64,000 nucleotides of DNA. Origin: Bacteroidales bacterium (GTDB lineage Bacteria; Bacteroidota; Bacteroidia; Bacteroidales; UBA12077). This document shows, piece after piece, positions 17,435 to 58,779 of the stretch. The translations under genes were made by a program, and so were the position numbers. Within the stretch, counting starts at the first letter, position 1, and each line of letters starts with the position of its first letter. Where the stretch lies: positions 257,102 to 321,101 of the forward strand of contig JAZBOG010000003.1 in the NCBI GenBank assembly GCA_036351015.1. The letters are read 5' to 3'. Below the pieces are notes generated by a model. The model searched no databases, was not told the origin of the DNA, and saw nothing but the letters and a program-made list of their open reading frames with translations.

Positions 17435-17456
17435 AAGAAAGAATACTGCTTCTCTG

Positions 17457-21111: not shown

Positions 21112-21122
21112 GATTTTTACTT

Positions 21123-22413: not shown

Positions 22414-22414
22414 C

Positions 22415-25477: not shown

Positions 25478-25616
25478 AGATTTTTATAAAATAAAACTCT
25501 AAAATAAATAAATAACCCTGTTTTTGAAATATTATTTTGGCTTAATTGAAAAATACCCGTTTTCGGGGTTCTTTTTAAAGCATTTTTCTTATTTTCGAGA
25601 ACATAAATAACCTCCA

Positions 25617-27271: not shown

Positions 27272-27277
27272 TCCAAC

Positions 27278-27748
27278 TCAATACTCAATTTTATCCTCTT
27301 TATTTCTCCATTTTTCAAAGGCTGCAATGGCTTCTTCACGCAGAACCTGGCGGGTAGGAATTTTTCGGTGTTCAATCGACTTTTCCAGCTCTTCGTATAT
27401 AAAAGAGTCGTCAAAATCAATATCCCGAGCATCGTTCTTGGTATTGGCAAAATAGATCTGATCCAGGTGGGCCCAATAGATTGCACCCAAACACATGGGA
27501 CAGGGTTCGCAGGATGAATAAATCTGACAACCGCTTAAATCAAAAGTCCCCAGTTTTCGGGTGGCTTCACGGATTGCATTTATTTCCGCATGCGCGGTTG
27601 GATCATTGCTTGAGGTGACCCGGTTGGTTCCTTTGGCAATAACTTCTCCGTTTTTAACAATAACTGCTCCAAAAGGACCTCCTCCTTCATCGACATTTTT
27701 AAGCGAAAGCTTGATGGCTTCACGCATATAATCTTCGTTATTCTTCAT
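27278..27748 (-). CDS. CDA-fold nucleoside deaminase, guanine-deaminase-like
   Basis: The zinc motifs are HAEINAIREA and PCPMCLGAIYWA. The C-terminal DIDFDDSFIYEE resembles GuaD. The start is placed at MKNNEDYMREAI; longer starts overlap the upstream gene more. Confidence 0.75.
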   Translation of the reverse strand: MKNNEDYMREAIKLSLKNVDEGGGPFGAVIVKNGEVIAKGTNRVTSSNDPTAHAEINAIREATRKLGTFDLSGCQIYSSCEPCPMCLGAIYWAHLDQIYFANTKNDARDIDFDDSFIYEELEKSIEHRKIPTRQVLREEAIAAFEKWRNKEDKIEY

Positions 27749-29327
27749 ATTCATCTCCTTTAAATTCATATCCAAATAAAAACAGCGCATAAAAATAAGA
27801 AAAAAATGTGACGCCGATCTGATTCTCTAAAGTATCTTCGTTTAGCATAGACAACAGGGCAATCAGGAAAAACAATACAAAAAAGTAATTCCGAAAACCT
27901 TTTCGCTTAAGGGGGGGATAAAACATACAAAACATAACCATAAGAAATCCTATGGCCCCAAAAGACACGAAGAATGTCACGTACTGATTATGAGTCCGTA
28001 GCCTCTTTGCTGGAGGAAGGATACTTTGATTTTCCTCGTATTGCTTATCAAAAGCATCCTGAACATCTCCGGTGCCGGTACCCAACCAAAAATTCTTTTG
28101 GATAATAGTAACGGCTGTTCTTAAAAACTCCCATCGCTGGGTGATGGAGTTCCCGGCAGGATTTGCTCCTTTAAGGTAAACATCTACCTCCCAGATCACC
28201 TGGTATATTTTTGGATAGAGCGCATAGCGACGGGTATAAATAACGTTGGCTATTCCATTTTCTATATTTCGGATATCTGCAGAAGTTAACCGGGACATCC
28301 CTGTCGAATCTTTCCGTAATCCTTTGGAGGTTAAATACCTGATAAGAGTGGTTTTTAGTTCCTGACCCTTCCTGTCGGTCCCTTCAAAACGGAAATCACT
28401 TATCTTGTTCCATTCCTGCTTCAACTCCTGCGGACATACATAAATCCAAACATAATTCCCGTTTTCAATTTGTTTCGGGGCACTCTTATGTTGATATGGA
28501 TTCCCGGAAGAGGTATATTGATCCAATTGCTCAAAATCAACCTGCTCCACGGTATAGAACCTGGCTATGGCATGGGTAATATAAGAAGCAACCCATAAAA
28601 ACCCGGTAATGAGTAATACCTGAACAAATAACCGGGGGATCAGATCCTTTATAGAAAAGGAAAAATAGCCGGTAAAAAGAAACAGAACAATACAAAAGAT
28701 CACAATTCCCGATAAGGATTTGAGCAAAAACAAAAAAATGATTAACCAAATAATGGTTAAGCCATAAGCAGTTCTTTTGAAGATTGATCTGGAAAAACTC
28801 CTGGAAAACAAAAAATACGCCAGGGTAAAAATACTCAGGTTGATCAATAAGCTTAGCCGGATATGGGACATAAACAAAGAGATCTCGCGGATATCTTTTA
28901 CCGGGAAGTTTAAAATTCCCAAAAAAACAGCCGTGCTGATCAGGGTGGAAATAACTACCGATAAAGAGAATAACAGCATGATATTTTGAAACTGTTTTTT
29001 CCCGGGAGCAGGTGAAGTTCCTATAATCAGCGGAAAAACAAGAATAATCAGTTTATTTTTCAGGTCATGAAATGCGTAATGGAAATTAGAGGTATTCAGC
29101 AGCCATAGGAGATGGACTAAAAAAATGCCGCAAAAGATTAAAAGAGAGGGATTATCCCTCAACTTTTTAATTTTTTCTGCAAATCGGCCTTCCAATACCC
29201 AGTTGGTGGCCAGGGTAATGATCGAAACACTGACTGCAAACTTCGACAGGGGTAAAGAAGCAGCAACCAGAAGCAAACCTGCATAATAAATTTTTGAATG
29301 ATGAATATGAAGATTAAAAACTTGCAT
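27738..29327 (-). CDS. O-antigen ligase (Wzy_C)-like polytopic membrane protein
   Basis: The protein has about 10 or more TM segments, a large loop, and RTHNQYVTFFVSFGAIGF near the C-terminus. Confidence 0.55.
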   Translation of the reverse strand: MQVFNLHIHHSKIYYAGLLLVAASLPLSKFAVSVSIITLATNWVLEGRFAEKIKKLRDNPSLLIFCGIFLVHLLWLLNTSNFHYAFHDLKNKLIILVFPLIIGTSPAPGKKQFQNIMLLFSLSVVISTLISTAVFLGILNFPVKDIREISLFMSHIRLSLLINLSIFTLAYFLFSRSFSRSIFKRTAYGLTIIWLIIFLFLLKSLSGIVIFCIVLFLFTGYFSFSIKDLIPRLFVQVLLITGFLWVASYITHAIARFYTVEQVDFEQLDQYTSSGNPYQHKSAPKQIENGNYVWIYVCPQELKQEWNKISDFRFEGTDRKGQELKTTLIRYLTSKGLRKDSTGMSRLTSADIRNIENGIANVIYTRRYALYPKIYQVIWEVDVYLKGANPAGNSITQRWEFLRTAVTIIQKNFWLGTGTGDVQDAFDKQYEENQSILPPAKRLRTHNQYVTFFVSFGAIGFLMVMFCMFYPPLKRKGFRNYFFVLFFLIALLSMLNEDTLENQIGVTFFSYFYALFLFGYEFKGDEYEE

Positions 29328-29595
29328 GTTTTATTCCTAAAAACGTATAAAGATAAAGAAAAGATTTTGTGGTTTGCTAAAGAAACGCTGGATAAAAAAT
29401 CAGGAAAAGATTTGGATTATCGGATAACAGGATCCTGTTAAACAGGGACAGGGGAAAAATAATTTTTCTTAAAATCCTCTCAAATAATCCTTTAATAATT
29501 AAACAAAATCATTATTTTTGCGCTTAATTTTTCGCGTATCAGCCAACAGGATTTCAGGTCAACAAGTTATTAACAAATAATTTGTTGATATTTTC

Positions 29596-29624
29596 TTGAT
29601 TTATAAAAAATAATTGTATTTTTG
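29596..29624 (+). promoter_or_regulatory. candidate Bacteroidota promoter for the rplM-rpsI-rpsB-tsf cluster
   Basis: The -7 box TATTTTTG lies at 29617-29624 with a TTG at 29596-29598 about 19 nt upstream. A second TATTTTTG lies at 29513-29520. Confidence 0.35.
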
Positions 29625-29688
29625 CAATCCGCAAAATACAGCTTGTATAATTGTATATAGGTATTAATTAAAAAGTTAGGAGTTTAAA

Positions 29689-30144
29689 GTGGATACATTA
29701 AGTTACAAAACAGTATCAGCAAACAAAGCTACTGTAGAAAAAAATTGGGTGCTTGTTGACGCAAAAGACGAAGTTTTAGGCCGGTTAGCTTCTAAAGTTG
29801 CAAAGATTTTAAGAGGGAAAAACAAACCTTCGTTCACACCACATGTGGATTGTGGTGATAATGTGATTATTATAAATGCTAGCCAGGCAAAACTAACCGG
29901 GAACAAAATGACACAAAAACAATATGTTCGTCATTCAGGGTATCCCGGAGGACAAAAAATTACTACTCCCGAGGAGTTATTTACCAAACAGCCGATCAAG
30001 GTTGTTGAGATGGCCGTAAAAGGGATGCTTCCAAAAAACCGATTAGGAAGAGAACTTTTCAGAAATCTTTATGTATATGAGGGGAGTGAACATCAACACG
30101 AAGCTCAAAAACCAAAAAAAGTAGATTTAAATTCAATTAAATAA
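29689..30144 (+). CDS. rplM: 50S ribosomal protein L13
   Basis: [47 protein letters not shown] is a classic L13 sequence. The start codon is GTG. Confidence 0.95.
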
Positions 30145-30536
30145 TGAATATGGAAGTAATAAATGCTTTAGGAAGAAGAAAATCCGCAGTTGCCAGGGTT
30201 TATTTAAGCGAGGGAAAAGGCAATTTTACGGTAAATGATCGTGAAATTGAGAATTTCTTTACTACAAAATCATTACAGTATATTGCGAACCAGCCGCTTA
30301 ACCTGTTAGAGGTAAAAGGAAAATATGACGTTAAGGTTAATATTTATGGTGGTGGAATTAAAGGACAAGCCGAAGCGGTTCGTTTAGGAATCTCAAGAGC
30401 TTTAAATAAAGCAAATCCTGAATTCAGAGATGCCTTAAAAAAAGCTGGATTCTTAATGCGTGATGCCCGAGTAGTAGAACGTAAAAAACCAGGACAACCC
30501 AAAGCACGCAAGAAATTTCAATTTAGTAAACGATAA
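30144..30536 (+). CDS. rpsI: 30S ribosomal protein S9
   Basis: The protein contains [12 protein letters not shown] and [19 protein letters not shown] and ends KKFQFSKR. The start overlaps the rplM stop (TAATG); the ATG at 30150 is an alternative start. Confidence 0.95.
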
Positions 30537-40018: not shown

Positions 40019-41206
40019 ATGACAATTGGAGTAGTTGTTGACAATGAATTTAATCATGATGCCAGGGTAAGGAATGAATGTAAGATTCTTGCCCGGGCCG
40101 GTCACGAAGTAAACGTTTTATGTTTCAATTTCGGAAAACATGAACCCTACGAAGAGATTGACAAAATCAAGGTTTACCGGATAAGCATTAAACAAAAGTT
40201 CAGGAATATCCTGTTTGCTTTTAACAACAGTATTGAGTTGTATAATCTATTCTGGAGCGCTAACATCAAAAAATTTATCCAAAAATATAATATTCAGGCG
40301 TTGCATGTACACGACCTTTATATGGCAAAGGCAGCACATTATGCGACAAAAAACACGACCATCCCGTTTACCCTCGATTTACATGAAAATTACCCGGCGG
40401 CAGTAAAAGGGTACCAGTGGATGTATCAGTTCCCGTTTACTTATCTGATAAGGCCAAAAAAGTGGGAGCGGCTAGAGAAAAAATATTTAGAATATCCCCA
40501 AAACATTGTTGTTCTAAGCGAGTCGTTTCGAGATGATTTACTCTTTAAGTATCCTTTTTTAAAAGAAAAAGCATTTGTCGTTTATCCCAATGTTCCCGAC
40601 TTAGATGAGTTTAAAAATTACCCCATAGATCAAACGATATATCCAAAAAATGATGATTTTCTTCTTTTCTATTTTGGTGTTATTTCTCAACGGCGAGGGA
40701 TTTTTACGGTGATTGAGGCGCTAAAAAAAATAATCAAGGAAATACCATCGGTAAAATTACTTCTGATCGGCCCGGCAGATAAAGCCGAAAAAGAGAAATT
40801 CCTGAAAACGATCACTAACCCAAAACTGAAAAAGCATATTACCTGGTATCCCTGGAAAGATATACGTTTACTCCCATCCTATATTCATAGTAGTGATGTG
40901 TGTCTGTCACCAATTGTAAAAAACGACCAACACGAATCGGGAGTGGCCAACAAAGTATTTCAATATATGCTTTTTGAGCGGCCGTTGATTGTCTCTGATT
41001 GTAAGCCACAGGCAAAAATTGTTGCTGAAGCGCAATGCGGACTCGTATTCAAGAGTGAGGATGCTGAGGATTTAGCCCAAAAAATTAATATGCTCTATCA
41101 GAACCAGGAGCTGAGCATAGAAATGGGAGAAAATGGAAAGAAAGCAGTAGAGATGAAGTACAATACCCAAAATTATGGAAAGAATTTAGTTAATTTGTAT
41201 GACTAG
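40019..41206 (+). CDS. glycosyltransferase family 4 (GT-B)
   Basis: The protein begins MTIGVVVDNEFNHDARV and its C-terminal half has the SPIVKNDQHESGVANKVFQYMLFERPLIVSD (EX7E-like) region. The ATG at 40019 is preferred over the listed TTG. Confidence 0.8.
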   Translation: MTIGVVVDNEFNHDARVRNECKILARAGHEVNVLCFNFGKHEPYEEIDKIKVYRISIKQKFRNILFAFNNSIELYNLFWSANIKKFIQKYNIQALHVHDLYMAKAAHYATKNTTIPFTLDLHENYPAAVKGYQWMYQFPFTYLIRPKKWERLEKKYLEYPQNIVVLSESFRDDLLFKYPFLKEKAFVVYPNVPDLDEFKNYPIDQTIYPKNDDFLLFYFGVISQRRGIFTVIEALKKIIKEIPSVKLLLIGPADKAEKEKFLKTITNPKLKKHITWYPWKDIRLLPSYIHSSDVCLSPIVKNDQHESGVANKVFQYMLFERPLIVSDCKPQAKIVAEAQCGLVFKSEDAEDLAQKINMLYQNQELSIEMGENGKKAVEMKYNTQNYGKNLVNLYD

Positions 41207-41209
41207 AAT

Positions 41210-42091
41210 ATGAAAATATCAACGATTAAACATATCACCTTAGAAGATGTTTACTGGCGGCTAAAAGCAGGCAGGTCAGGAAAACGGCTGACTGTTTTTG
41301 AGTTAAGAGCGGATTTAAACAAGTATATCCAAAATCCTGTTTTTTTTCTTTCCACGGGTAGATGTGGCACCAAATGGTTTTCAGATTTATTAACTCATGC
41401 TAAAGAATTATTCGTTTTACACAGCCCTGTCCCAAGTCTTGCCATCCAAAGCAAACTGGCATATGAAATCTTAAAAACGGGAAATCTGAAGAATAGTCAT
41501 GTAGATTTATTGGAAGAAATTTTTCTTACCGGCAGAGAACAACACCTAAGGTATAGTTATAAAACAAACAAAAGATATATTGAAACGAATAATTATGTTA
41601 CCTTTTTTGCTCCCCTTCTGAATAAACTTTTTCCTGATGCAAAATTTGTACATCTTTATAGGCATCCTGGAGAATTTGTACGTTCGGCCATACGCAGAAA
41701 TTACTATACCGAGAATAATCCGGATAACCTAAAAAGGATCATTCCCTTGGATAGCCAACAAAAAGAGCAATGGAAACATTTTACCCAACTAGAGAAAACC
41801 GCCTGGTTATGGAATGAAACAAATCTATTTATCGAACAATTTAAAGAAAAAAATCCCGGGAAGGTTTTTGATTTTAACTTTAATGAGCTAACAACAGATC
41901 ATGTAATCAAATTATTACATTTCCTGGGAATTAAGATAAATCCTGGAATCATAAGTAAGTCGCTTAACAAAAAAGCAAATGTTCAAAAAAAGGGGAATTT
42001 CAAAAAATACTCAACCTGGGAAAAAGAAAAAAAACAAGAGTTAATCAACATATGTAACGAATTGGCAGCAAAGTACAACTATAACTTATGA
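41210..42091 (+). CDS. probable sulfotransferase (Sulfotransfer_3-like)
   Basis: The P-loop-like PAPS motif is FFLSTGRCGTKWF, followed later by VHLYRHPGEFVRSAIRR. The gene sits inside a polysaccharide gene cluster. Confidence 0.55.
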   Translation: MKISTIKHITLEDVYWRLKAGRSGKRLTVFELRADLNKYIQNPVFFLSTGRCGTKWFSDLLTHAKELFVLHSPVPSLAIQSKLAYEILKTGNLKNSHVDLLEEIFLTGREQHLRYSYKTNKRYIETNNYVTFFAPLLNKLFPDAKFVHLYRHPGEFVRSAIRRNYYTENNPDNLKRIIPLDSQQKEQWKHFTQLEKTAWLWNETNLFIEQFKEKNPGKVFDFNFNELTTDHVIKLLHFLGIKINPGIISKSLNKKANVQKKGNFKKYSTWEKEKKQELINICNELAAKYNYNL

Positions 42092-42104
42092 CGTGTTTTA
42101 AATA

Positions 42105-42824
42105 ATGAAAAATTTAAACATCACCATTATTGGTAATTCAGTTGCTCTTAGGGTAAGACCTCCCAAACAATACCCTGACAATGAAAACTATACCAAATTA
42201 CTTGAAAAAGAGCTAAATACTCAACTTCCATCACATAATATTAGGCTAATAAATAAAGCTGTTGGAGCCTCAACAACTTATGATGTAATTCAAAAAATTG
42301 ATGAGTATATTAATTCTTTTCCTGAATTTTATATTCTGAATTTAGGGGTTGTTGATGCTTCTACAAGAGAAATTCCCCGGTGGTTGAACCAATGGATTAA
42401 TTCCAAAAAAGAAAGTTTCATTCTTTTTTTAGTACGTGCACTTTTTAATCATTTTATTAAAAGATACAGGCCATTTTTTGTGAAATTAAGAGGTAAAAGA
42501 AGCTGGATATCCGGGAAAAAATTTAAAAAATATTTTTCAGAACTTGTACAAACTTTATCCAAAGAAACCAATGCGAAAATTATAGCCATTCCCATTAATC
42601 CGGCAAATCAACGGGTAGAAAAACAATTACCGGGTTCATTAAAAAAACACCTTGAATATAATACGATCATTGAAAAAATTATTAAAGATCATTCCCAGGA
42701 AATTTTAAAAACAGACTTTTTACAATCAGAAATCCATTATCCTGATGGTGTTCACTATTCTTCCGAAGGCCATAAGATGATCGCCAAAGAAATTAGTACA
42801 ATCATTTTAAAATATATTCGCTAA
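42105..42824 (+). CDS. SGNH/GDSL-like hydrolase or acyltransferase
   Basis: Block I is ITIIGNSVA and block V is DGVHYSSEGH (DxxH). Confidence 0.6.
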   Translation: MKNLNITIIGNSVALRVRPPKQYPDNENYTKLLEKELNTQLPSHNIRLINKAVGASTTYDVIQKIDEYINSFPEFYILNLGVVDASTREIPRWLNQWINSKKESFILFLVRALFNHFIKRYRPFFVKLRGKRSWISGKKFKKYFSELVQTLSKETNAKIIAIPINPANQRVEKQLPGSLKKHLEYNTIIEKIIKDHSQEILKTDFLQSEIHYPDGVHYSSEGHKMIAKEISTIILKYIR

Positions 42825-44177
42825 GTGGAAGGTTATTTATCAAAGCAAAAAATAAACTATACTCTTTTTCACGTATCTCAATCTGTTGATTTACATACAA
42901 CAAAAGACTTATTTTATTTTTGCACTTCCCAAAATGTTCCTGCAGATTTAAAAAATAAAATTGTTTTTAAACTATCTTCAAAAAACTTAAATTTCGAAAA
43001 TATTTTATGGGTGGAGGACCTTCCCATTCTGTTCCCTACGAATAATCAACAAGAACCCTATTCCTTTGACCAAAACAACAATCTAATCTTCCATCACGAC
43101 CTTCTTAAATCAGCCTTTTACCTGCTTTCGGGATACCAGGAATTAAAACCCGAATACAGGGACCGCTTTGGCCGTTTCCCTTATGAACTTTCCATCCAAA
43201 AAAAACTGGGGATCATTAAAAAACCGGTAGTTAATTATTATTTTAAACTTATAACCCAGGGACTGGAAGAATTCTGCAAGATCCATAACCTGGAATTCAA
43301 AAAAGAGAAGCCCTATAACCCATTTGCTTTCTTCTTATCGCATGATGTGGATAAAATTGATACCTACAACTTTTATGATTTAGTTTATTATCTAAAAGTA
43401 TTGTTTGGATTATCTAAAAAAAAGATTCCTTTTTCGAAGAAAATAAGAAAAGTTGCTGAATACGGATTTCATTTTCTTTTTACCCGTAAAAACCCAAACT
43501 GGGATTTTGATTTCTTAAGGGGCCTTGAAAAACAATTTGATTTTACTTCTACCTTTTACTTTTTACCCAAGGATCTCAAACACCAGGATGCTTATTACTC
43601 ATTTCACGAAAAAAAAGTACAAGACCTATTTAAACAATTAAAAGCAGAACATTGTGAAATTGGGATCCATGGAACCAACCGTTCAGCCACTCATTTAAAA
43701 TTCTTACAATCCAATATTGCCGAATTAGAGAAGGCTTCAGGGGTTAATATTTCTGGCATAAGGCAACACCGACTTATTTTTGATATGAACATCACTCCCT
43801 ACATCCATGAGGAGGCTGGTCTGGCCTATGATACTTCGTTAGCCTTTGCAGAGCACGAAGGTTTCAGGAATTCCTATTGTTTCCCTTTTAAGCTCTATAA
43901 TTTTAAGGAAGACCGCCCTTTTCATACCTGGCAAATTCCGCTCCATGTGATGGATGCCACCCTGTTTGAATACCGGAAACTAACGATGGATGAGGCCTTT
44001 AACTCGGTGGAGGAAATTTTAAACGAAGTGATAAAATTTAATGGTGTTTTTTCCTTGCTTTGGCATAATGGCTTCTTTGATGAAATAGTACATCCGGGTA
44101 TTAAAACATTTTATTATAATGTATTAGAATCTATTCATAAACGAAAAGGTCGCTCAATTCATGGGAAAAAATTGTGA
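42825..44177 (+). CDS. hypothetical protein, possibly a polysaccharide-deacetylase-like (CE4-related) enzyme
   Basis: The GTG start directly follows the upstream stop. FFLSHDVDKIDT and IGIHG motifs are reminiscent of deacetylase folds, but the assignment is weak. Confidence 0.35.
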   Translation: MEGYLSKQKINYTLFHVSQSVDLHTTKDLFYFCTSQNVPADLKNKIVFKLSSKNLNFENILWVEDLPILFPTNNQQEPYSFDQNNNLIFHHDLLKSAFYLLSGYQELKPEYRDRFGRFPYELSIQKKLGIIKKPVVNYYFKLITQGLEEFCKIHNLEFKKEKPYNPFAFFLSHDVDKIDTYNFYDLVYYLKVLFGLSKKKIPFSKKIRKVAEYGFHFLFTRKNPNWDFDFLRGLEKQFDFTSTFYFLPKDLKHQDAYYSFHEKKVQDLFKQLKAEHCEIGIHGTNRSATHLKFLQSNIAELEKASGVNISGIRQHRLIFDMNITPYIHEEAGLAYDTSLAFAEHEGFRNSYCFPFKLYNFKEDRPFHTWQIPLHVMDATLFEYRKLTMDEAFNSVEEILNEVIKFNGVFSLLWHNGFFDEIVHPGIKTFYYNVLESIHKRKGRSIHGKKL

Positions 44178-44200
44178 ATCAAAAACTTAAACCAATCTTC

Positions 44201-45565
44201 CTAAGAAAAGAAAGGCAAATTTAAAATATAAATTCTTATAAAAATCAGAGGAATAATAACAGCCAAAATCCACTTACTTGTATTTAACCCCGCTTTAATA
44301 AGTGAGACATTCGCCATCTTTAATAAATAAAAACAAAATCCAATCCAGAATATAGTACTTACCAGACTATACAAGATAATTACATTTAAAGCATTATCGG
44401 CATAAAGCAATCCCCCAATTATCAATGGTGTTGCACGGAATATTAATAATATGATATTTACTATTAAACTTTTTTGCTGTTTTTCCAATACCGAAAATAG
44501 TTGGGACAAAGGTGATGATATAAAATTAAACAAAAACCAGATGCTTAAAAACTGTGAATATACCCCGGCAATCACCCACTCTTTACCAAATACAAAACTA
44601 AAAATATAATCTCCCCAAACACCAATAATACTCATCGGGATTATTCCAATAATTAATAGTTTCTTATACACAGAAAAAGTGAAATTGGCTAATTCCTTTT
44701 TATTATTCCTTAAAGTTGATGCTTTCTGAAAATATACCTGAGCAAAACTACGTCCAATCACATACATAGGCATACTCAGCATCCTGTGTGAAAATGAATA
44801 AAAACCAACAATGCCTGCATTAAAAAAACGGGTTAATAAAATAACAGGAATCTGAACAGAAAGGGTATTTAATCCATTGGAAGGCATGGTAAACAAAGGA
44901 AACTTTTTAAATCTTTCAGCGACCAGCTTTAACGAATGTAAGGAGGGCCTTGGAAAGGAAACAGTATTTTTTTTGGAAGAGAGATAACGGATATGTAAAC
45001 CTCCGGTTAATGCACCCAAGATACTGCTTACAATCATTCCAAAACTGCCCAGGTGCATAAACCCCATCCCTGCCCTCGAAAAAGAAGTCCCAAGAGATTG
45101 GGATACATTGGCAAACGAAATCGATGAGTAATGTTTCTTCCGGTTTTCATAATATTCATAAATCTGAAAAAGTGCACGAAGAAAAACAGATAAGGGAATA
45201 AAGTAAAGCCAACTCGAAATATCCTCATTATCCAGAATCCTCGTTACCTGATCATTAAATACTACTACCACGAACAACAAAATGATACTGACAACCAGGT
45301 TTATATAAATCGACAGGTACTTTAAGTCAGAAGCCTCCCTTTCATCTTCGGGCAACATGATGGCCAGGTTATATCTTCCTGTAGCTACAATCACAAAGAT
45401 ATTTACGATAGCTAAATATAACGCGATCAGCCCGAAGTCAGAAGGGGAATACAGCCGTGTAAGGATAGGGCTTATCAGTATTGGAATAGCCTGAGCAATA
45501 GCAGTACCACTGACTAAGGTTAAAACATTTTTATAAAATTCCGAGGTCCGGATTTTTTTAAACAT
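44201..45565 (-). CDS. oligosaccharide flippase (Wzx/MOP superfamily)
   Basis: The 454-aa protein has about 12-14 TM helices and an N-terminal NVLTLVSGTAIAQAIPILISPILTRLYSPSDFG pattern. Confidence 0.75.
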   Translation of the reverse strand: MFKKIRTSEFYKNVLTLVSGTAIAQAIPILISPILTRLYSPSDFGLIALYLAIVNIFVIVATGRYNLAIMLPEDEREASDLKYLSIYINLVVSIILLFVVVVFNDQVTRILDNEDISSWLYFIPLSVFLRALFQIYEYYENRKKHYSSISFANVSQSLGTSFSRAGMGFMHLGSFGMIVSSILGALTGGLHIRYLSSKKNTVSFPRPSLHSLKLVAERFKKFPLFTMPSNGLNTLSVQIPVILLTRFFNAGIVGFYSFSHRMLSMPMYVIGRSFAQVYFQKASTLRNNKKELANFTFSVYKKLLIIGIIPMSIIGVWGDYIFSFVFGKEWVIAGVYSQFLSIWFLFNFISSPLSQLFSVLEKQQKSLIVNIILLIFRATPLIIGGLLYADNALNVIILYSLVSTIFWIGFCFYLLKMANVSLIKAGLNTSKWILAVIIPLIFIRIYILNLPFFS

Positions 45566-45582
45566 ATTTCACGTGTATTGAG

Positions 45583-46878
45583 TTACAAGGCATGAATAAC
45601 CTCAGCCAGCGACCGGGTTAACGCCCTGCGTTCAAATCGTTCAATATCCGCTGATTCGACATCATCATTACCCGCCTGGTACCGTTGAAATAAATGAACA
45701 ACGGCTGATTTCATTTGTACAGTATCTTCATATTCACAAACTTCTCCTACTCCCATTTCGCGGATTAACCGGGCAGTATCTCCCTGTGTATTTCCCAGCA
45801 TCAATACAGGTCTCCCGGAGGCCAGGTATTCAAATACTTTTCCGGGAATCATCCCGGACGAGCCGGAAAAACGGCTAATCAGCAGTAAAAGTATTCTCGA
45901 ACGCATCATCTGCTTAGGAATATCATTATGTTGAACATAAGAAATCCGCTCGGTAAACTCTTCCAACCCATGCACTTTCATCTCTTCAATCACCGAAAAA
46001 TCTACTTTACCGATCAGCTTAATCTTTAATTTTGATTGGAAATCAGGATTATTTTTCAACAGTTCCTGCAAAACCATCCACAGGTTATGCGGATTTCTTT
46101 CCTTATGAACCGTTCCGATATGCACGATACTAAATTCATCATCCACCGGGTTGGAAATATCTTTAAAGTCCAAAGCATCATAACCATTGGTAATAACTTT
46201 CACTTTTTTACCCCCAAGCTGTTCCAGGTCTTTGGCCCAGGATTGGCTTACCGTTAAAACAACATCCGCCGAGGAAATAACTTTTCGCTCCAGTTTACGG
46301 TGTTTCTTATCCGCTCTCTTGCCTGTTTTCAGCAAATGATAGTAATCTACCTTGGTCCAGGGATCCCGAAAATCGGCAATCCATTGAATATTTAATTCTT
46401 TTTTTAATTGTAATGCGATTAAATGCATGCTGTGAGGCGGACCGGTTGAGATTACCGTCTCGATCTGATTTTCAGCAATAAACTTCTTTAAAAATTTAAC
46501 CGAGGGGTTGACCCAAAATTTCCGGGCATCGGGAATAAACAGGTTGCCCCGTATCCATACCGCAATGGATTCCAGGAAACCTGTCTTTTTATTTTCCTGG
46601 ATAAATCCTGCATTTACTTTTTGTTTCTGGCTTTTCCCGGTAAAAATCTTGTAAAAAGAATAGGGTTCAAATATTTTTCTTTTAATAACCTGTATCCCAG
46701 GAGGGATATCCTCTAACAACGAGTTATCTTCAACGGGACTTTCAGGATTCGAAGGGGTGTAAATAACAGGCTCAACACCAAATTCGGGCAGATATTTGGC
46801 AAACTTCAACCAGCGCTGCACCCCTGCTCCACCACTCGGCGGCCAGTAATAAGTTATTATGAGGACTTTTTTTTTCAA
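45583..46878 (-). CDS. glycosyltransferase family 4-like (GT-B)
   Basis: The N-terminus is MKKKVLIITYYWPPSGGAGVQRWLKFAKYL. The C-terminal region has GKVFEYLASGRPVL. Confidence 0.75.
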   Translation of the reverse strand: MKKKVLIITYYWPPSGGAGVQRWLKFAKYLPEFGVEPVIYTPSNPESPVEDNSLLEDIPPGIQVIKRKIFEPYSFYKIFTGKSQKQKVNAGFIQENKKTGFLESIAVWIRGNLFIPDARKFWVNPSVKFLKKFIAENQIETVISTGPPHSMHLIALQLKKELNIQWIADFRDPWTKVDYYHLLKTGKRADKKHRKLERKVISSADVVLTVSQSWAKDLEQLGGKKVKVITNGYDALDFKDISNPVDDEFSIVHIGTVHKERNPHNLWMVLQELLKNNPDFQSKLKIKLIGKVDFSVIEEMKVHGLEEFTERISYVQHNDIPKQMMRSRILLLLISRFSGSSGMIPGKVFEYLASGRPVLMLGNTQGDTARLIREMGVGEVCEYEDTVQMKSAVVHLFQRYQAGNDDVESADIERFERRALTRSLAEVIHAL

Positions 46879-47031: not shown

Positions 47032-47382
47032 TTACAATGATTTAATAAGTTTGTTGAGCAAATAACTTATTTCTGTTGTTTTGTGGTCCATATCATTAAA
47101 TTTATTGGCATCAATATAACCCAGATCTTTTGATAAAAGTAATAAATACCTGATTTCTTCCAAAGAACCTCTTGCAATATACAAAAACCTTAGAAATTCT
47201 TTCGTGGTATTTCTTGAATGACCTTCTACAATATTTGTTGGAACCGATGTTGCTGCCCGTCGTATTTGATCTGTAATATTATATTTTTCATCTCTGGGAA
47301 AACTTACGATTTCTTTATAAATATATATTACAAACTGATGGCTCCTTTGCCATACTAACAAATCTTTCCAATGATTACTCAT
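47032..47382 (-). CDS. four-helix-bundle protein (23S rRNA intervening-sequence protein / Avd-like family)
   Basis: The 116-aa protein has the pattern LLVWQRSHQFVIYIYKEIVSFPRDEKYNITDQIRRAATSVPTNIVEGHSRNTTKEFLRFLYIARGSLEEIRYLLLLSKDLGYI, typical of this family. Confidence 0.8.
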   Translation of the reverse strand: MSNHWKDLLVWQRSHQFVIYIYKEIVSFPRDEKYNITDQIRRAATSVPTNIVEGHSRNTTKEFLRFLYIARGSLEEIRYLLLLSKDLGYIDANKFNDMDHKTTEISYLLNKLIKSL

Positions 47383-52884: not shown

Positions 52885-52906
52885 GCCGGGTATTCCCGGC
52901 TTTTTT
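52885..52906 (+). terminator. short rho-independent terminator after the PNP gene
   Basis: GCCGGG-tatt-CCCGGC is followed by TTTTTT. It ends 6 nt before the MFS start codon. Confidence 0.55.
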
Positions 52907-52912: not shown

Positions 52913-54076
52913 ATGGAAAAAGAGCAAAAAGCATTCCAGCTGAAAAATGTTATCAGTGTATCGTTTGCCCATTTTATGCACGATGTGTACTCGGCATTTC
53001 TTGCTCCCATTGTGCCTTTGCTTAAAAACAAACTCCAGATAAACAATACTCTGGTCAGCCTGCTCTTTGTTGCCCAACAAATACCCTCGTTGTTTAATCC
53101 GCTGATAGGCATTATTGCCGACAACCTTAGGATCAGGTACCTGGTCATTCTTGCCCCGGCGATTACAACCATATGCATGAGTTTAATCGGCCTGGCGCCC
53201 CACTATATTCTACTTATCGTATTGCTTTTTGTAATGGGCATCAGTAATGCCATGTTTCATGTTCCAACCCCCGTATTAATCAAAAAGATTGCCGGCAACC
53301 GGGTGGGTAAAGGGATGAGTTTTTATATGCTGGGAGGCGAGGCCGCAAGAACAATCGGTCCGCTGGTAATAGTAGCTGCAGTGAATTACTGGACCCTGGA
53401 GGGGACCTACCGGTTAATTCCTTTTGGCCTTTTTGCCTCGGCACTTCTTTATTTCAGGCTGAGAAAAATTAATGTCTCGGCAAGCATCCAACGAAACCGT
53501 TCGATGAAAGGAATAAAAGCAACTTTTAAAGAACACCTTCCGTTTTTTATTCTTATTGCCGGAGTAATGTTCTTTCGCGGCTTTATGAAAACCTCATTAA
53601 CGAATTTTTTACCAACCTACCTGGATGAAAAGGGTGGCAGCCTTTGGCTGGGAGGTATCTCTCTTTCTGTTTTCGAATTTGCCGGGGCTGCAGGAGCCTA
53701 TCTTTCAGGTACCTTCTCCGATAAAATCGGACGGTTAAAAATGTTAACCTTTATTATCCTGGTTTCACCGGTGTTAATGCTGGCCTTTGTCTATACCGAA
53801 GGAGGAATGATGTTCCCGGTCCTTCTCCTGTTAGGCTTTTTTCTGATCTCGTCAACCCCGGTTATCTTAGCCCTTGTTATGGATATTGACTCAGAACACC
53901 AGGCATTTCTAAGCGGAATATTCATGTTCATCTCTTTTGTTTCTACCTCGGTAACAGCATTTATCGTGGGAGTCCTTAGCGACTTCATCGGACTGGTCGA
54001 CACTTATAAAGTAGCTTCCATCCTGGCTTTTTTGGCGATTCCTTTTGTTTTGGTTTTAAGAAAACGTTTTCCGTAA
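52913..54076 (+). CDS. MFS transporter
   Basis: The 387-aa protein has about 12 TM segments and an N-terminal SFAHFMHDVYSAFLAPIVPLL pattern. Confidence 0.8.
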   Translation: MEKEQKAFQLKNVISVSFAHFMHDVYSAFLAPIVPLLKNKLQINNTLVSLLFVAQQIPSLFNPLIGIIADNLRIRYLVILAPAITTICMSLIGLAPHYILLIVLLFVMGISNAMFHVPTPVLIKKIAGNRVGKGMSFYMLGGEAARTIGPLVIVAAVNYWTLEGTYRLIPFGLFASALLYFRLRKINVSASIQRNRSMKGIKATFKEHLPFFILIAGVMFFRGFMKTSLTNFLPTYLDEKGGSLWLGGISLSVFEFAGAAGAYLSGTFSDKIGRLKMLTFIILVSPVLMLAFVYTEGGMMFPVLLLLGFFLISSTPVILALVMDIDSEHQAFLSGIFMFISFVSTSVTAFIVGVLSDFIGLVDTYKVASILAFLAIPFVLVLRKRFP

Positions 54077-54138
54077 GAAAATATTACCTTTGAATCAGGA
54101 GGGGAAAAAACAATATCCCCCTTTTAAATTATTCGTTT

Positions 54139-56025
54139 ATGCAATCCTATTTCGGTAAAATAAACCTGAACAATAACAGTGTAAACCAGGAAGATGTTGT
54201 TGGTGCTCTTAAAGAACTATCCCCCGGAAAGAACCTTAATCAATCGATGATTTGCAATCACCATTATGGACTGGGAGCCATTGAAATTTTCCCTGCCAAA
54301 CACCGCAACACCAAGCATTCTCCTTTCAAATCAGGAGCTTACATAATTTTAGAGGATTGCAGGATCGACAACCGCGAAACATTGATCCGTAAACTTAATC
54401 TTGATTCTAAAAGCATCACCGACCCCGAATTGATTCTGCAATGCTTTCAGCGATGGAAAGCAGACTGTCCAAAATACTTAACCGGCGATTTCTCTTTTGC
54501 GATATGGAACACAGAAACCCATGAACTATTTTGTGCCAGAGACCACTTTGGCGTAAAACCATTGAATTATTACCTGGATGATCATCAATTTATTTTTTCA
54601 ACAGAGATTCGGGGTATTTTAAGCCAGCAAAATTTAGACTTAACCATCGACCAGCAATTTATTGCCGACACCCTCTCCATTATAAAGTCTGATCATTCCA
54701 GGTCAACGTACCAGGGAATAAGAAAACTTCCCCCGGCACATTCCCTTCACCTAAAAAATAAGGAACTTACTCTCAGGAGATACTGGGAGTTAAAACCTGC
54801 ATACACTTCATGCAAGGACGAAGAGGAGTATATCCGCCGGTTTAAAGAATTACTCAACCAGGCTGTTCAACGCAGGCTGGAAGATCCGGTAAACTATGGC
54901 GCCGAGTTAAGCGGGGGTATTGACTCTTCAAGCATCGCCTCTTTGGCCTCCCGTCGGGTAACCCTAAAAACCTTTTCACACGTCATGCCCGATGAAATGA
55001 TCGGGAAAGTGCATCCGTTTAACGATGAGAAAAAATATATCCGTTTACTTAACGATTTCTGCAATATCAACCAACGATTTTTAATCACTTCTGAAAATTC
55101 GGGCATCATCCAGGCTCTGGAAAACAGCCTACTCCTCAACCAGGGGATTGTACAACAGAACTTTAGTGTGTTTTCTGACCAGCTCTACCAGGAAGCCGAA
55201 AATCAGAACGTGCAGGTATTGCTTTCGGGCTTTGGAGGAGATGAAGTGGTAACCTCAAAGGCAGGCAACTATTTAAGAGAGATCCTTAAGGAGCGGGAGT
55301 TTAAAACCGACCTTAAAGCACAAGGCCTCCCAACAATTGCCATTCACCTTACCAAATTTAAATACTGGTTAAAAAACAATTTTCCCCAGGCAACAAACCT
55401 TCTCCTGGCTTTAATAAAAGGGAAAAAATGGTGGGCCAGAAAATATAAAAATCTGGCCATTCAGAAGTCATTCAACCGACAATTTAATATTAAGCAACGT
55501 TATATTAATTATTATCAATCCATCCGAAGAGACAACCTGACAGAACAATCCACCGAAAGAATAACGCATCCGCATGTAGCACAGCGACTGGAATACAGCT
55601 CACTTGCGGCAAAACACCACGGGATCGAATATCGCTATCCACTCCTAGATAAAGATTTAATTGAATTTTATCTTTCGATGCCTCAACGACTGAAAGCAAA
55701 AAACGGAGTCTTACGGTACACTATCCGCCAGGCAATGGATGGTTACCTCCCCGAAGAGATCCAGTGGAGGGATGATAAAAGCGGAGCTACGATACCTACT
55801 GTTTTTATGCGGACCTTGATCGATAAAAATAAAATTTTCAGGATCATGGAACGGGCGAAATCCAACCCGGCTATTACCCGGTACATTGATATGCATAAGT
55901 ATCAACAATGGAGTACCCGCTTTTTTCAACGATCAGCAAAAAATAAATTTATCAATCCGGGAGCATTTTTTAATTACCTTAAACTGATTTTATTTATTGA
56001 AAATAATCCTTCCTTATTTAAATGA
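54139..56025 (+). CDS. asparagine-synthetase-like lasso peptide cyclase (macrolactam synthetase, C protein)
   Basis: The PP-loop is AELSGGIDSSSIASLA. The AsnB-like N-terminal domain (RDHFGVKPLYY-type: RDHFGVKPLNYY) begins MQSYFG without the catalytic Cys2 of true glutamine-dependent AsnB. The length is 628 aa. A PF14907-like nucleotidyltransferase follows with a 4-nt overlap. Confidence 0.75.
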   Translation: MQSYFGKINLNNNSVNQEDVVGALKELSPGKNLNQSMICNHHYGLGAIEIFPAKHRNTKHSPFKSGAYIILEDCRIDNRETLIRKLNLDSKSITDPELILQCFQRWKADCPKYLTGDFSFAIWNTETHELFCARDHFGVKPLNYYLDDHQFIFSTEIRGILSQQNLDLTIDQQFIADTLSIIKSDHSRSTYQGIRKLPPAHSLHLKNKELTLRRYWELKPAYTSCKDEEEYIRRFKELLNQAVQRRLEDPVNYGAELSGGIDSSSIASLASRRVTLKTFSHVMPDEMIGKVHPFNDEKKYIRLLNDFCNINQRFLITSENSGIIQALENSLLLNQGIVQQNFSVFSDQLYQEAENQNVQVLLSGFGGDEVVTSKAGNYLREILKEREFKTDLKAQGLPTIAIHLTKFKYWLKNNFPQATNLLLALIKGKKWWARKYKNLAIQKSFNRQFNIKQRYINYYQSIRRDNLTEQSTERITHPHVAQRLEYSSLAAKHHGIEYRYPLLDKDLIEFYLSMPQRLKAKNGVLRYTIRQAMDGYLPEEIQWRDDKSGATIPTVFMRTLIDKNKIFRIMERAKSNPAITRYIDMHKYQQWSTRFFQRSAKNKFINPGAFFNYLKLILFIENNPSLFK

Positions 56026-57188
56026 CAAGCAAAGCGCAACATATCATTTCCCAATATCCGGTGGAGTTACAATTGATTCTTTTATTTTCGCAGGATCATT
56101 TGTCGGGTGAAGCCATTGAAAAAATTAAGCGACTCGAAAAACAGGCAGACTGGACCTTATTTTTTGCCCTGGCCAAAAAACACCGGTTAATTTCTCATAT
56201 TACAAGATCTGCATATTTATTAAAACCGGAAATTAAAAAGCAAGTTAATACAACCCATAAAGCCCTATCTAAAAAGGCTTTGCTATATAGCAAACATTTA
56301 ATTAGCATCCACCAGATCTTAAAAAAAGAGCATATTCCCCACACCTTTTTCAAAGGGCCTTTATTATCCTTATCTCTATACCACGACATTGGTTTCAGGG
56401 ATTATAGAGACCTGGACATTTTAGTTCCTCTCTCCCGGATCGAAGTTGCCAAACGACGGATTCAGGAGCAAGGTTTTGTAATGCATGCTCCATCCTTGGA
56501 GCTGACTCCAAAGCAACGAAAAATTAATTATTCAATCAGTCATCATTACCATCTCAGAAACCCTGATGACTCCACAGAAATAGAACTGCACTGGAACTTA
56601 ACCAATCCCAGAACCTACCTTCCTCTGCCAACAGAAAAGCTCATAGCTGAGTCAGAGAATATTGAGATCGCTCAGAACAGGTTACCCTATCTTTCGAAGG
56701 AGGCAAACCTTGTTTTTTTGGCAGCCCATGGTGCTATTCATCAATGGTATCGCCTTTTCTGGCTAAAGGATTTTTCAGAAATGCTCCGGCAAAGTAGAAC
56801 CGAAGAAATTGAACAGGCATACACCCTGGCAGAAAAGCTGAAACTGGAAAAAACTTTTGCCCAGGGCTGTAGGTTATCCAATATACTTTATAACAATACT
56901 GTTCCGGATTGCATCAACCGCAAAAATAATACAGTCTTTTTAACACACTGCGCACTCAGGGCTATAGCCGATAAAGACTTAAGGCAGCAAGGCATCCCGG
57001 GTAAAATAAAATTTCTGGGATACCGGTTACATCTTAAACCTGATCGTCATTATTTCTTCAGTTTACTTTTCAGATTACGCACTCATTATTCTGACTGGGA
57101 AGTACTTCCATTACCCAACTCCTTGTTTTTTCTTTACTATTGGCTCCGTCCATTGATCCTGTTCTACAAATTTTTACGTAAAAAATAA
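56022..57188 (+). CDS. nucleotidyltransferase-fold protein (uncharacterised NTP_transf_5 type, lasso-cluster associated)
   Basis: The protein is 388 aa and contains FFKGPLLSLSLYHDIGFRDYRDLDILV (the G..RxxxDLDILV nucleotidyltransferase motif) and IELHWNL. It is translationally coupled to the cyclase (ATGA overlap). Confidence 0.65.
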   Translation: MTSKAQHIISQYPVELQLILLFSQDHLSGEAIEKIKRLEKQADWTLFFALAKKHRLISHITRSAYLLKPEIKKQVNTTHKALSKKALLYSKHLISIHQILKKEHIPHTFFKGPLLSLSLYHDIGFRDYRDLDILVPLSRIEVAKRRIQEQGFVMHAPSLELTPKQRKINYSISHHYHLRNPDDSTEIELHWNLTNPRTYLPLPTEKLIAESENIEIAQNRLPYLSKEANLVFLAAHGAIHQWYRLFWLKDFSEMLRQSRTEEIEQAYTLAEKLKLEKTFAQGCRLSNILYNNTVPDCINRKNNTVFLTHCALRAIADKDLRQQGIPGKIKFLGYRLHLKPDRHYFFSLLFRLRTHYSDWEVLPLPNSLFFLYYWLRPLILFYKFLRKK

Positions 57189-57304
57189 TCACCAACCATA
57201 GAAATAACTACAGGCTTTTGTTTATTTATTCGCCAAAAAAATTGGCGGTTGTCATAAATTTTGTGTTATTTTATTTTTTGAAAAGGAACACCAACCTTTT
57301 GCCT

Positions 57305-58399
57305 ATGGATATCAATACAACTTTCTGGTTTTTTGAGAGAATCAAAGAAGATAATTTATGTATGCTGTATAGTGGCAATTTCAGCGATGAAATTACCAAT
57401 AAGCTTATTGAGCTTAGCGAATACAACATCAATAATATCGATTCTCTTTCAAAAATGAAGAAAAAAGCATCGTTCTTGATGGCAGAGTGCTTTCAGAACA
57501 TTGTACGGCATGGGGAAAAAATAACCGAAGAACACAATGATGGTTTTTTTCTTACCAAAAACTGGGGTGGTGTGTATTACATTACATCTGGCAACCTGAT
57601 CGAAAAAAACAAAATCAAGAACCTGGAGAGCCAGCTAAAGACAGTTAACAGTCTTACCAAAGAAGAGCTGAAGATTTTATACCGTGAAGTATTGGAAAAT
57701 AACGAGATCTCCGATAAAGGAGGAGCCGGGTTAGGTTTGATTGAGATGGCCCGAAAATCGGGTCAAAAACTCGATTACCTGTTCGAAAACAAGAATAATA
57801 AATTCTTCTATTTCTACAATCAAATCATGCTTAAATCGGATATGGACGAATTCAATACGATGGTTAGCGATTTTCCCCTGACAGATTCTATCAGCTATCA
57901 CAAAAAAATGGTTAACGAAGATGTGATGCTCATCCATAAAGGTGATTTTTCACAGGATTCAATTTTTCCCGTGTTAAAAATTATTGAAGAAAACCTGCGA
58001 AAAGAATTTAAGGACTCTACCCAAAAAAAGAAGATTTTTCATATCCTGGTAGAGCTTTTACAAAACATTAGCAAACATTGTTTTAAGATAAATCACAAGA
58101 AGGAGGGTATTTTTTTAATTGGAAACAGTAATTCAAACTTTGTAATCAATACAGGAAACCTGATAGAGAATAAAAGCATTGAGAAATTCACAAAACTACT
58201 CGACGAAATTAACAGCTTAAACCGAAAAGAACTTAAAAATCTATACCTGAGCAAGCTCAGAGACCGGAACCTGCCAAGCAACGGAGGAGCAGGAATTGGT
58301 CTGATTGATATTGCTCGGAGAATAATTTCTCCATTAAATTATTCTTTTCACCGGCTGGATGATGAAAAATCATTTTTTACCATTAATGTAATTGCTTAA
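57305..58399 (+). CDS. SiaB-like (GHKL/anti-sigma-kinase fold) protein with the domain duplicated in tandem
   Basis: The two halves share LMAECFQNIVRHG / LVELLQNISKHC, GNLIEKNKI / GNLIENKSI, NSLTKEELKILY / NSLNRKELKNLY and GGAGLGLIEMARKSG / GGAGIGLIDIARR. The ATG at 57305 is preferred over the listed TTG. Confidence 0.6.
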   Translation: MDINTTFWFFERIKEDNLCMLYSGNFSDEITNKLIELSEYNINNIDSLSKMKKKASFLMAECFQNIVRHGEKITEEHNDGFFLTKNWGGVYYITSGNLIEKNKIKNLESQLKTVNSLTKEELKILYREVLENNEISDKGGAGLGLIEMARKSGQKLDYLFENKNNKFFYFYNQIMLKSDMDEFNTMVSDFPLTDSISYHKKMVNEDVMLIHKGDFSQDSIFPVLKIIEENLRKEFKDSTQKKKIFHILVELLQNISKHCFKINHKKEGIFLIGNSNSNFVINTGNLIENKSIEKFTKLLDEINSLNRKELKNLYLSKLRDRNLPSNGGAGIGLIDIARRIISPLNYSFHRLDDEKSFFTINVIA

Positions 58400-58401: not shown

Positions 58402-58779
58402 ATGCTTCAGACTTTTGAATCAGCAGAAACCCGGGATAAACCGTATATTATTTTTGATCCCCTAAATAACCACTTCGAGATCAGGGGGAACTCATTACCC
58501 GAAGATACTACCTTATTTTACCAACCGGTTATTGAATGGATTATAGAATATGCAAAAGATCCAAACCAGGTAACTCACCTGGTATGCAGTCTCGATTATT
58601 TTAATTCTTCATCGGCTAAAATGCTTTATGAACTGTTTATCGAGCTGGAAAAAATTAAAGATACCGGTAAAGAGGTAAAGGTAACCTGGGGTTATGATCC
58701 GGATGATCATTTAATTGAAGAAAAAGGGTTGGAATTTAAATCCATCCTTGAAATACCTTTCGAAGTACTGGAAAAATAA
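58402..58779 (+). CDS. DUF1987 (SiaC-like) protein
   Basis: The 125-aa protein contains FEIRGNSLPEDTTLFYQPVIEWI and LDYFNSSSAKMLYELF, the DUF1987 signature. Its start lies 2 nt after the SiaB-like stop. Confidence 0.65.
   Translation: MLQTFESAETRDKPYIIFDPLNNHFEIRGNSLPEDTTLFYQPVIEWIIEYAKDPNQVTHLVCSLDYFNSSSAKMLYELFIELEKIKDTGKEVKVTWGYDPDDHLIEEKGLEFKSILEIPFEVLEK

Follow-up and report, generated by a model that had tools for sequence, protein, structure and literature searches.

Does a lasso peptide cyclase gene that stands apart from its usual partners still belong to a lasso peptide pathway, and where would the remaining genes of that pathway be? This question is raised by a 64,000-nucleotide stretch of a Bacteroidales genome (GenBank assembly GCA_036351015.1, contig JAZBOG010000003.1, positions 257,102 to 321,101 of the forward strand; hereafter the window), in which a gene for a putative lasso macrolactam synthetase lies 43.8 kb (10357 to 54139) from genes encoding the leader-binding protein B1, the leader peptidase B2 and a precursor peptide. 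The best explanation, to which we assign a probability of roughly 0.8, is that the window carries one lasso peptide pathway split into two transcription units. The left unit (minus strand, 7358-10357) holds the kinase, sulfotransferase, B1, B2 and precursor genes, and the right unit (plus strand, 54139-57188) the cyclase and a coupled nucleotidyltransferase (NTase), with the following predicted functions:

7358-7513, minus strand: precursor peptide, 51 amino acids (aa) from ATG, MDEKERTLEEKNTPLHNTKLTWEMPKLFSLDKMKTE followed by GGNGLDPTEDYIYES
7675-8112, minus strand: B2 leader peptidase, transglutaminase-like (PF13471, 79 bits; NF033537, 85 bits, cut-off 33)
8157-8435, minus strand: B1, PqqD-like leader-recognition protein of the RRE type, i.e., a recognition element of RiPPs, peptides that are ribosomally synthesised and modified post-translationally (PF05402, 67.9 bits; NF033536, 101 bits, cut-off 80)
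8602-9468, minus strand: tailoring sulfotransferase of the 3'-phosphoadenosine 5'-phosphosulfate (PAPS) type (PF00685, 100.9 bits, far above the cut-off; PKSGNTW and RNPLD motifs)
9461-10357, minus strand: HPr-kinase-like peptide kinase, tailoring (P-loop GLSGVGKS at residue 128; adjacent to the cyclase gene at 37 loci of relatives)
54139-56025, plus strand: lasso macrolactam synthetase (C protein, hereafter the cyclase), 628 aa (open reading frame, Pfam, NCBIfam, relatives)
56022-57188, plus strand: nucleotidyltransferase-fold tailoring enzyme of PF14907, PsmN-type, 388 aa (Pfam, motif)

The strongest evidence comes from related genomes. An alignment-based scan of a genome collection yielded 80 loci around cyclase homologues, which were searched with the window proteins. 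Their common layout consists of DUF6427, purD, a gene for an SprB-like protein, precursor, B2, B1, sulfotransferase and kinase genes on the minus strand, back to back with cyclase and NTase genes on the plus strand. The window cyclase has no B1, B2 or precursor gene in cis; in 37 of the 62 orthologous loci with sufficient upstream sequence the kinase gene, followed by those for the sulfotransferase, B1, B2 and precursor, is divergently adjacent to the cyclase gene. At least 15 genomes in the group with the closest intact clusters (e.g., L005) combine this divergent cluster with the DUF6427-purD-SprB-like left flank of the window, and the left flank of the intact clusters is the left flank of the window B1/B2 locus. 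In intact-cluster genomes with a cyclase 47-51% identical to that of the window, the NTase gene is followed by orthologues of window positions 21802-30536 in the same order and orientation. As the orthologues of both halves are contiguous and the left flanks match, the two window loci correspond to opposite sides of a cluster that is undivided elsewhere. The complementarity of the loci, proposed in a first-pass annotation of this DNA, is thus mirrored in dozens of related genomes, in which the orthologues are contiguous and divergent in the same neighbourhood as the left locus, and there is good support for regarding the loci as complementary halves of a single lasso pathway. Judged by gene order, the widespread ancestral arrangement in Bacteroidales is a single divergent cluster.

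The first-pass annotation described the product of 54139-56025 as an AsnB-fold protein with the PP-loop SGGIDSS and without the Cys2 nucleophile, all of which is borne out. The translated reading frame starts with MQSYFG, so that the Cys2 nucleophile is absent, and Pfam recognises Asn_synthase (PF00733, 152.5 bits) together with GATase_6/7. The motif scan places SGGIDSS at residues 258-264, where it is invariant across an alignment of 26 cyclase sequences. All 51 columns invariant in this alignment are present in the window cyclase; the alignment consensus begins MxSIFG, and no residue, Cys included, holds the majority at position 2. Among NCBIfam models NF033535, for the lasso isopeptide cyclase, scores best (374 bits, E 1e-111), with 236 bits for the AsnB model TIGR01536. 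At 90% identity, the close homologues of the cyclase and those of the kinase each group into 10 protein clusters. Identity as a genuine asparagine synthetase, or as an amidotransferase associated with polysaccharides, would account for the Asn_synthase and GATase matches, for the partial match to TIGR01536, for the result of a PDB sequence search, which returned distant AsnB-type enzymes only, and for a polysaccharide locus located 8-14 kb upstream of the gene. Nevertheless, we consider such an identity extremely unlikely, as it is contradicted by the missing Cys2, by the higher score of the lasso model, by the 37 loci in which orthologues lie inside lasso clusters and by the translational coupling of the gene to a lasso-associated PF14907 NTase. 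The assignment of the 628-aa protein as a lasso-type cyclase rather than an asparagine synthetase, made at first sight of the sequence, is therefore the one supported by its best model and by the genomic setting of its orthologues.

The NTase start codon lies on the cyclase stop codon (ATGA, 56022-56025), and both this 4-nt overlap and the DLDILV motif (residues 130-135 in the motif scan, with a DxD metal site) are as described in the first-pass annotation. The protein matches PF14907, NTP_transf_5 or 'uncharacterised nucleotidyltransferase', with 154.8 bits against a cut-off of 31.2, while a PDB sequence search with it gave no match. Its gene directly follows the cyclase gene in 48 of the 69 loci with sufficient downstream sequence. 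This agrees with the earlier statement that the NTase is of a type tied to kinase-containing lasso clusters, and it supports the notion that the NTase is a fixed partner of the cyclase.

The left locus supplies what the right one lacks. No B1, B2 or precursor gene occurs at the cyclase locus and no cyclase gene at the minus-strand B1/B2 locus, as had been stated, and no further copy of B1, B2 or precursor and no remnant of a cyclase or NTase gene were found elsewhere in the 64-kb window. The precursor has the cleavage context ...KTE followed by GGNGLDPTEDYIYES, with Thr at -2, Gly at position 1 and a C-terminal Ser, and Glu9 of the core is predicted to serve as ring acceptor. Precursors encoded beside B2 at more than 25 related loci share the leader motif WExPKLxxLDKGKTE, a GG start, a Glu or Asp near position 9 and the C-terminal Ser; the acidic residue occupies position 8-10, most often 9, and the Ser is nearly universal among precursors of this Bacteroidales family. 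The kinase is predicted to phosphorylate this Ser. For the unmodified cyclised (dehydrated) GGNGLDPTEDYIYES core, a neutral monoisotopic mass of 1610.67 Da ([M+H]+ 1611.68) was computed. The sulfotransferase, which has an alternative TTG start at 9510, has orthologues within the cluster in most loci.

The separation of the two halves is a property of a clade and not only of the window. At loci L006-L010, with a cyclase 66-68% identical to that of the window, the order is lpxK, a nucleoside phosphorylase gene (PNP), a major facilitator superfamily (MFS) transporter gene, cyclase, NTase, SiaB and SiaC, and the short contig L011 (cyclase 70% identical) shows cyclase, NTase, SiaB and SiaC. The left locus occurs without an adjacent cyclase gene in L086 (on a 3.5-Mb contig), L088/L089, L093 and L094. 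Two further metagenome-assembled genomes (MAGs) contain both halves, GCA_034661075.1 (L008 and L088) and GCA_046538755.1 (L003 and L093), which together with the window makes at least three genomes. Since the cluster is contiguous in lineages further removed (cyclase 31-43% identical), the split is the derived state. The label 'orphan', given to the cyclase at first, is too strong, the arrangement being one in which a 3.1-kb cassette of cyclase and NTase genes has been relocated, a derived condition that the whole clade conserves. The assembly GCA_046538755.1 is named 'Thiohalospira sp.', a gammaproteobacterial genus; its contigs are syntenic with the Bacteroidales window, the neighbouring proteins being 78-95% identical, and its label or binning is probably wrong. 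The two genes that directly follow the NTase gene in the split clade encode, in the window, a SiaB-family kinase (57218-58399, plus strand; two DUF6272 domains; NF038262, 256 bits) and a SiaC phosphoprotein (58402-58779, plus strand). Four distant genomes with intact clusters (L045, L069, L081, L082) have a similar SiaB/SiaC pair 5-7 kb downstream of the cyclase gene, encoded on the other strand.

How the cassette came to its present position can be approached by comparing the window with an intact relative, for which two segments of the window have to be distinguished:

10358-21801: 11.4-kb block now at the ancestral cyclase-NTase position (intact genomes have the kinase, then cyclase-NTase, then the orthologue of 21802-22413)
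21802-54076: 32-kb syntenic chromosomal block, from a polysaccharide deacetylase gene to lpxK-PNP-MFS

On the intact contig JAHLLG010000001.1 the kinase gene, the cyclase-NTase pair and a block ending in glyS-nadB-lpxK-PNP-MFS follow each other on one contig and in one orientation, with about 37.6 kb between the start of the cyclase gene and the end of MFS. The window has the kinase gene, then the inserted 11.4-kb block, the 32-kb block ending in MFS, and finally cyclase-NTase. Comparison of the two orders shows that the cyclase-NTase pair has in effect crossed the 32-kb block, as if some 35 kb had been cyclically permuted. In L094 (1-2823; GCA_046482355.1) a kinase gene whose product is 74% identical abuts a gene with LTD, Big_5 and CHU_C domains (58% identity) that follows MFS in intact genomes, a junction that would be left if the entire stretch of about 35 kb from cyclase to MFS had been cut out. 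Excision followed by reintegration, or a tandem duplication followed by loss, would each fit the pattern. Neither repeats at the four junctions nor, at the ancestral site, remnants of cyclase or NTase genes were found above chance level, and with junctions that lack both, the mechanism of the rearrangement is one that we infer from gene order. Likewise, no cyclase or NTase remnant was found in 10358-21801.

Both halves have been under purifying selection since the split. All their genes are full-length, and the proportion of nonsynonymous differences (pN) is 0.06-0.25 against near-saturated synonymous differences (pS) of 0.39-0.81. Between GCA_034661075.1 and GCA_046538755.1 the ratio of nonsynonymous to synonymous substitution rates (dN/dS) is 0.03 for the kinase, 0.14 for B1, 0.10 for B2, 0.11 for the cyclase and 0.14 for the NTase; the sulfotransferase was left out for pairs that include GCA_034661075.1 due to a frame artefact. 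The precursors of the split clade are intact, with the leader motif, a GG or NG start, the ED motif and the C-terminal Ser. In neighbour-joining trees of the cyclase and of the kinase the split clade is recovered in both, with the same internal branching, and the cyclase/kinase divergence ratio is 1.25 in split-versus-intact pairs and 1.15 in pairs of distant intact clusters. The congruent trees and similar ratios indicate that the halves have been co-inherited.

Each half may also be transcribed from a promoter of its own, as suggested by the second and third of the following boxes of the Bacteroidetes type:

7550-7557, minus strand: candidate Bacteroidetes -7 box TATATTTG, about 37 nt upstream of the precursor ATG, a motif match only
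10375-10383, minus strand: promoter-like -7 box TTACCTTTG, 25 nt upstream of the kinase ATG
54084-54092, plus strand: promoter-like -7 box TTACCTTTG, 54 nt upstream of the cyclase ATG and downstream of the MFS gene

Intact clusters carry back-to-back Bacteroidetes -7 boxes (TAnnTTTG) in the spacer between kinase and cyclase genes: TATCTTTGTTAAAA precedes the cyclase ATG by about 24 nt, and the kinase operon is served by TAAATTTG on the opposite strand. In the split clade, the cyclase box ATTACCTTTG is found 38-62 nt upstream of the gene in 6 of 6 loci, and the kinase box TTTACCTTTG about 25 nt upstream. The kinase box at -25 is kept in the window, L088 and L093 and lies at about the same distance from an internal ATG in L086; L094 has only TACCTTTG, some 21 nt before the ATG. 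The conserved cyclase and kinase boxes are taken as evidence for a separate promoter at each half. A GGGG...CCCC hairpin in the 5' region of the cyclase gene (54097-54125) was also considered and dropped, being no better than shuffled sequences (z -0.98) and not conserved.

Several observations weigh against a single split pathway. In the model comparison proposed by the first-pass annotation the lasso cyclase model does come out ahead of AsnB, but both scores are below their curated cut-offs (525 bits for NF033535, 267 for TIGR01536). The HPr-kinase match of the kinase is weak (PF07475, 22.4 bits versus a cut-off of 33.3); many of its homologues are pre-annotated as PF07475 or PF27840. The box TTACCTTTG is not enriched in the window, with three matches, two of them the cyclase and kinase sites, against 1.2 expected, and 11 of 100 shuffles reach three, so that its reading as the sign of a common regulator was rejected. 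No exporter was identified: neither of the window loci nor the intact cluster L005 has an ABC (ATP-binding cassette) transporter gene within or next to it. The cooperation of the two loci, with the cyclase acting in trans, is something that we infer from the genomic comparisons. In addition, the cyclase and NTase of the split clade, the fastest-evolving members of the set, diverge 1.5-2.5 times faster than the kinase. This is near the top of what intact pairs of like divergence show (1.3-2.2 times) and makes some relaxed constraint on these two proteins possible. Cluster erosion also does happen, as indicated by partnerless cyclase-like genes in other Bacteroidales (L027, L028, L029, L032, L047), which have no B1, B2 or kinase gene within 6-10 kb. 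In L027/L028 the gene adjoins those for a GT9 heptosyltransferase and a true AsnB; L029 has the order cyclase-NTase-deacetylase and lacks the left half; L047 shows SprB, small ORFs, cyclase and PfkB; and in L032 the gene stands between RadC and MarC. The break-up or erosion of the cluster thus seems to be recurrent in Bacteroidales.

The last two points would favour the possibility that the cyclase-NTase pair at its new site is a mere relic or serves another role, with another substrate or in non-lasso amide ligation, the left locus being non-productive or served otherwise. We regard this as unlikely. The cyclase and NTase are both full-length, no invariant residue has been lost from them, their dN/dS values of about 0.11-0.14 are low, and they co-diverge with the kinase. 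In 5 of 5 split-clade genomes the left locus has no neighbouring cyclase gene, and yet this locus and its precursor are constrained as well, which is hard to explain without a cyclase. A related concern is that the genome has, at some other place, a further complete lasso cluster that provides one half, or both, with the true partners. Our inspection spans 64 kb of a 396-kb MAG contig, a second B1/B2/precursor set or cyclase gene could lie beyond it, and some bacteria have several lasso clusters. Still, this seems very unlikely to us, given that the cyclase-NTase pair is orthologous to the pair that stands beside the same B1/B2/kinase set in related genomes, and that no extra copies are present within the window. 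The reading that we prefer remains that of one pathway encoded in two separate units.

The right unit was originally thought to include the MFS gene upstream of the cyclase, as a possible substitute for the usual exporter, and to be insulated by a terminator. The two features concerned are:

52885-52906, plus strand: hairpin resembling an intrinsic terminator, downstream of the nucleoside phosphorylase gene, with GCCGGGTATTCCCGGC at 52885-52900 and then TTTTTT
52913-54076, plus strand: MFS transporter, 387 aa (MFS_1; Fsr/fosmidomycin-resistance-like according to JGI names)

Recruitment of this transporter as the lasso peptide exporter could be argued from its position on the same strand directly upstream of the cyclase gene in all split-clade loci with upstream sequence, and from the lack of an ABC exporter in the cluster. 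However, the same lpxK-PNP-MFS block, with an MFS protein 77-82% identical, occurs without a downstream cyclase gene in L090 and L092, the intact cluster being located on the same contig about 35-38 kb away (L019 and L018, respectively). Of the intact clusters in the 80 loci, none contains the MFS gene. Across the split clade the MFS protein shows 90% identity, like its housekeeping neighbours, in contrast to 66-68% for the cyclase and 60-62% for the NTase, and the cyclase gene has its own promoter-like box downstream of MFS. The occurrence of the block without a cyclase where the cluster is intact, and its housekeeping-like conservation, point to MFS as a resident gene beside which the cassette landed. 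The gene was judged not to be part of the lasso module, and its use as exporter is quite improbable. The hairpin and T-run of the terminator are present as described, but the terminator separates PNP from the resident MFS gene and, preceding that gene, does not delimit or insulate the module. One possible exporter is a 1022-aa protein with TerB, ABC_tran and ABC2_membrane domains in L088 (20799-20897), about 10 kb from the kinase gene; it is encoded past the orthologues of window 30-1066, that is, by synteny, beyond the left edge of the window.

A pathway can be proposed on the model of known lasso, paeninodin and pseudomycoidin biosynthesis. B1 would bind the conserved leader (WExPKLxxLD...T at -2), the kinase would phosphorylate the C-terminal Ser of the linear precursor, and B2 would then cleave the leader off after ...KTE. 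The trans-encoded cyclase would adenylate the side chain of Glu9 and join it to the Gly1 amine in an ATP-dependent reaction, giving a 9-residue ring threaded by a Tyr-rich tail. Subsequently, the NTase may decorate the phosphoserine, as PsmN does, and the sulfotransferase may add sulfate, probably on Tyr, which is common near the C-terminus.

As far as can be judged from its genes, the system belongs with the kinase-type lasso clusters, its nearest counterparts being those for paeninodin and pseudomycoidin, and represents an uncharacterised Bacteroidales lasso family. Kinase-containing clusters of the paeninodin type are ascribed to Firmicutes and Proteobacteria (Zhu et al. 2016, via PMC8498205), and sulfotransferase and nucleotidyltransferase genes are noted in some of them. 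The window system resembles these clusters in its split B1/B2 proteins, AsnB-like cyclase, putative HPr-kinase homologue, Ser-ending precursor and ...PxLxxLD...T-x leader (PMC8498205). It differs from them in being from Bacteroidales, in lacking an ABC exporter in the cluster, in combining kinase, sulfotransferase and NTase, in being chromosomally fixed beside a gene for an SprB-like protein of the type IX secretion system (T9SS) and, in the split clade, in the separation of cyclase and NTase from the rest.

In the pseudomycoidin (psm) system of Bacillus pseudomycoides, PsmN, an uncharacterised NTP-transferase, is needed for the addition of hexose(s) to the phosphoserine (PMC6993621; PMC8498205); the statement of the first-pass annotation that such a protein further decorates the phosphoserine is correct. 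Both systems combine a kinase with NTP-transferase tailoring, and PsmN requires D134 and D136, while the window NTase has DLD at residues 130-132 (PMC6993621); the NTase is likened to PsmN by this DxD motif and by description. In contrast to the arrangement in the window, psmN is situated between psmB2 and psmD in one contiguous cluster, and psm has no sulfotransferase (PMC6993621). PsmN also works from a separate plasmid, and its supply in trans is thus tolerated (PMC6993621).

What is unusual here is that the core cyclase is encoded physically apart from B1, B2 and the precursor. For citrulassins, a tailoring peptidyl-arginine deiminase is reportedly encoded away from the lasso cluster. Both cases depart from single-locus encoding, the remote gene being that of an accessory tailoring enzyme in citrulassins and that of the core ring-forming cyclase in the window. 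The literature searched yielded neither an account of a split or orphan lasso cyclase nor a sulfated lasso peptide that has been characterised. The split clade offers a natural case of a core RiPP enzyme parted from its partners and retained under selection in several species, and it draws attention to a large Bacteroidales lasso family in which a peptide kinase is combined with a PAPS sulfotransferase and an NTase of the PsmN type. Tools for lasso peptide discovery look for cyclase, B proteins and precursor side by side. They would therefore overlook a pathway whose cyclase gene is 44 kb distant, or judge it incomplete whichever half they start from. Since lasso enzymes work when supplied from separate plasmids, their action in trans is not surprising, and the value of the case lies mainly in genome mining and natural-product discovery.

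The left locus has a conspicuous neighbour, a giant SprB-repeat protein with a Por_Secre_tail domain (T9SS cargo) encoded at 3513-7346 on the minus strand of the window and also in L012-L024 and L043-L082. Such a gene lies within 1.5 kb of B1/B2 in 35 of the 51 loci that show B1/B2, and it adjoins cluster genes even where clusters are rearranged (L050, L047, L066). The SprB-repeat protein may be functionally linked to the lasso system. A far-reaching combination of these observations, which we put forward as speculative and rather doubtful, would see a vertically inherited and chromosomally fixed Bacteroidales system that makes a triply tailored lasso peptide (phosphorylated, sulfated and NTase-modified), tied functionally to the SprB-repeat T9SS protein that travels along with it. 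In the split clade the ring-forming step would be controlled separately, possibly via SiaB/SiaC, making cyclisation a regulated checkpoint rather than a constitutive part of the operon.

The 43.8 kb between the two loci are composed of chromosomal genes. According to the Pfam annotation, they include genes for fumarases, an EF-G-like GTPase, an extracytoplasmic function (ECF) sigma factor, rpsI/rpsB/tsf, queA, truB, uppP, ftsX, a polysaccharide locus, glyS, nadB, lpxK and a nucleoside phosphorylase. A search for transposase or integrase genes in this interval found none, in line with the original description of about 43.8 kb of core genes instead of a mobile element. The 11.4-kb block contains genes for a nitroreductase, ArsC, fumarases I and II, the EF-G-like GTPase, two DUF4097 proteins, a transglutaminase, an anti-sigma factor and the ECF sigma factor. 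The GTPase (15392-17350, plus strand; 652 aa) is an EF-G/ribosomal-protection-like paralogue, beside which (17457-21638) lie the genes for the two DUF4097 proteins, the transglutaminase-like protein, a zf-HC2/HEAT anti-sigma factor and the ECF sigma factor. Further on, the polysaccharide-biosynthesis locus (40019-46428) encodes glycosyltransferases, a flippase and a GDSL esterase, as well as a second sulfotransferase (PF13469; 41210-42091, plus strand), which is unrelated to the lasso sulfotransferase. Finally, a 23S rRNA-intervening-sequence protein/bAvd-like gene (47032-47382, minus strand) adjoins glyS.

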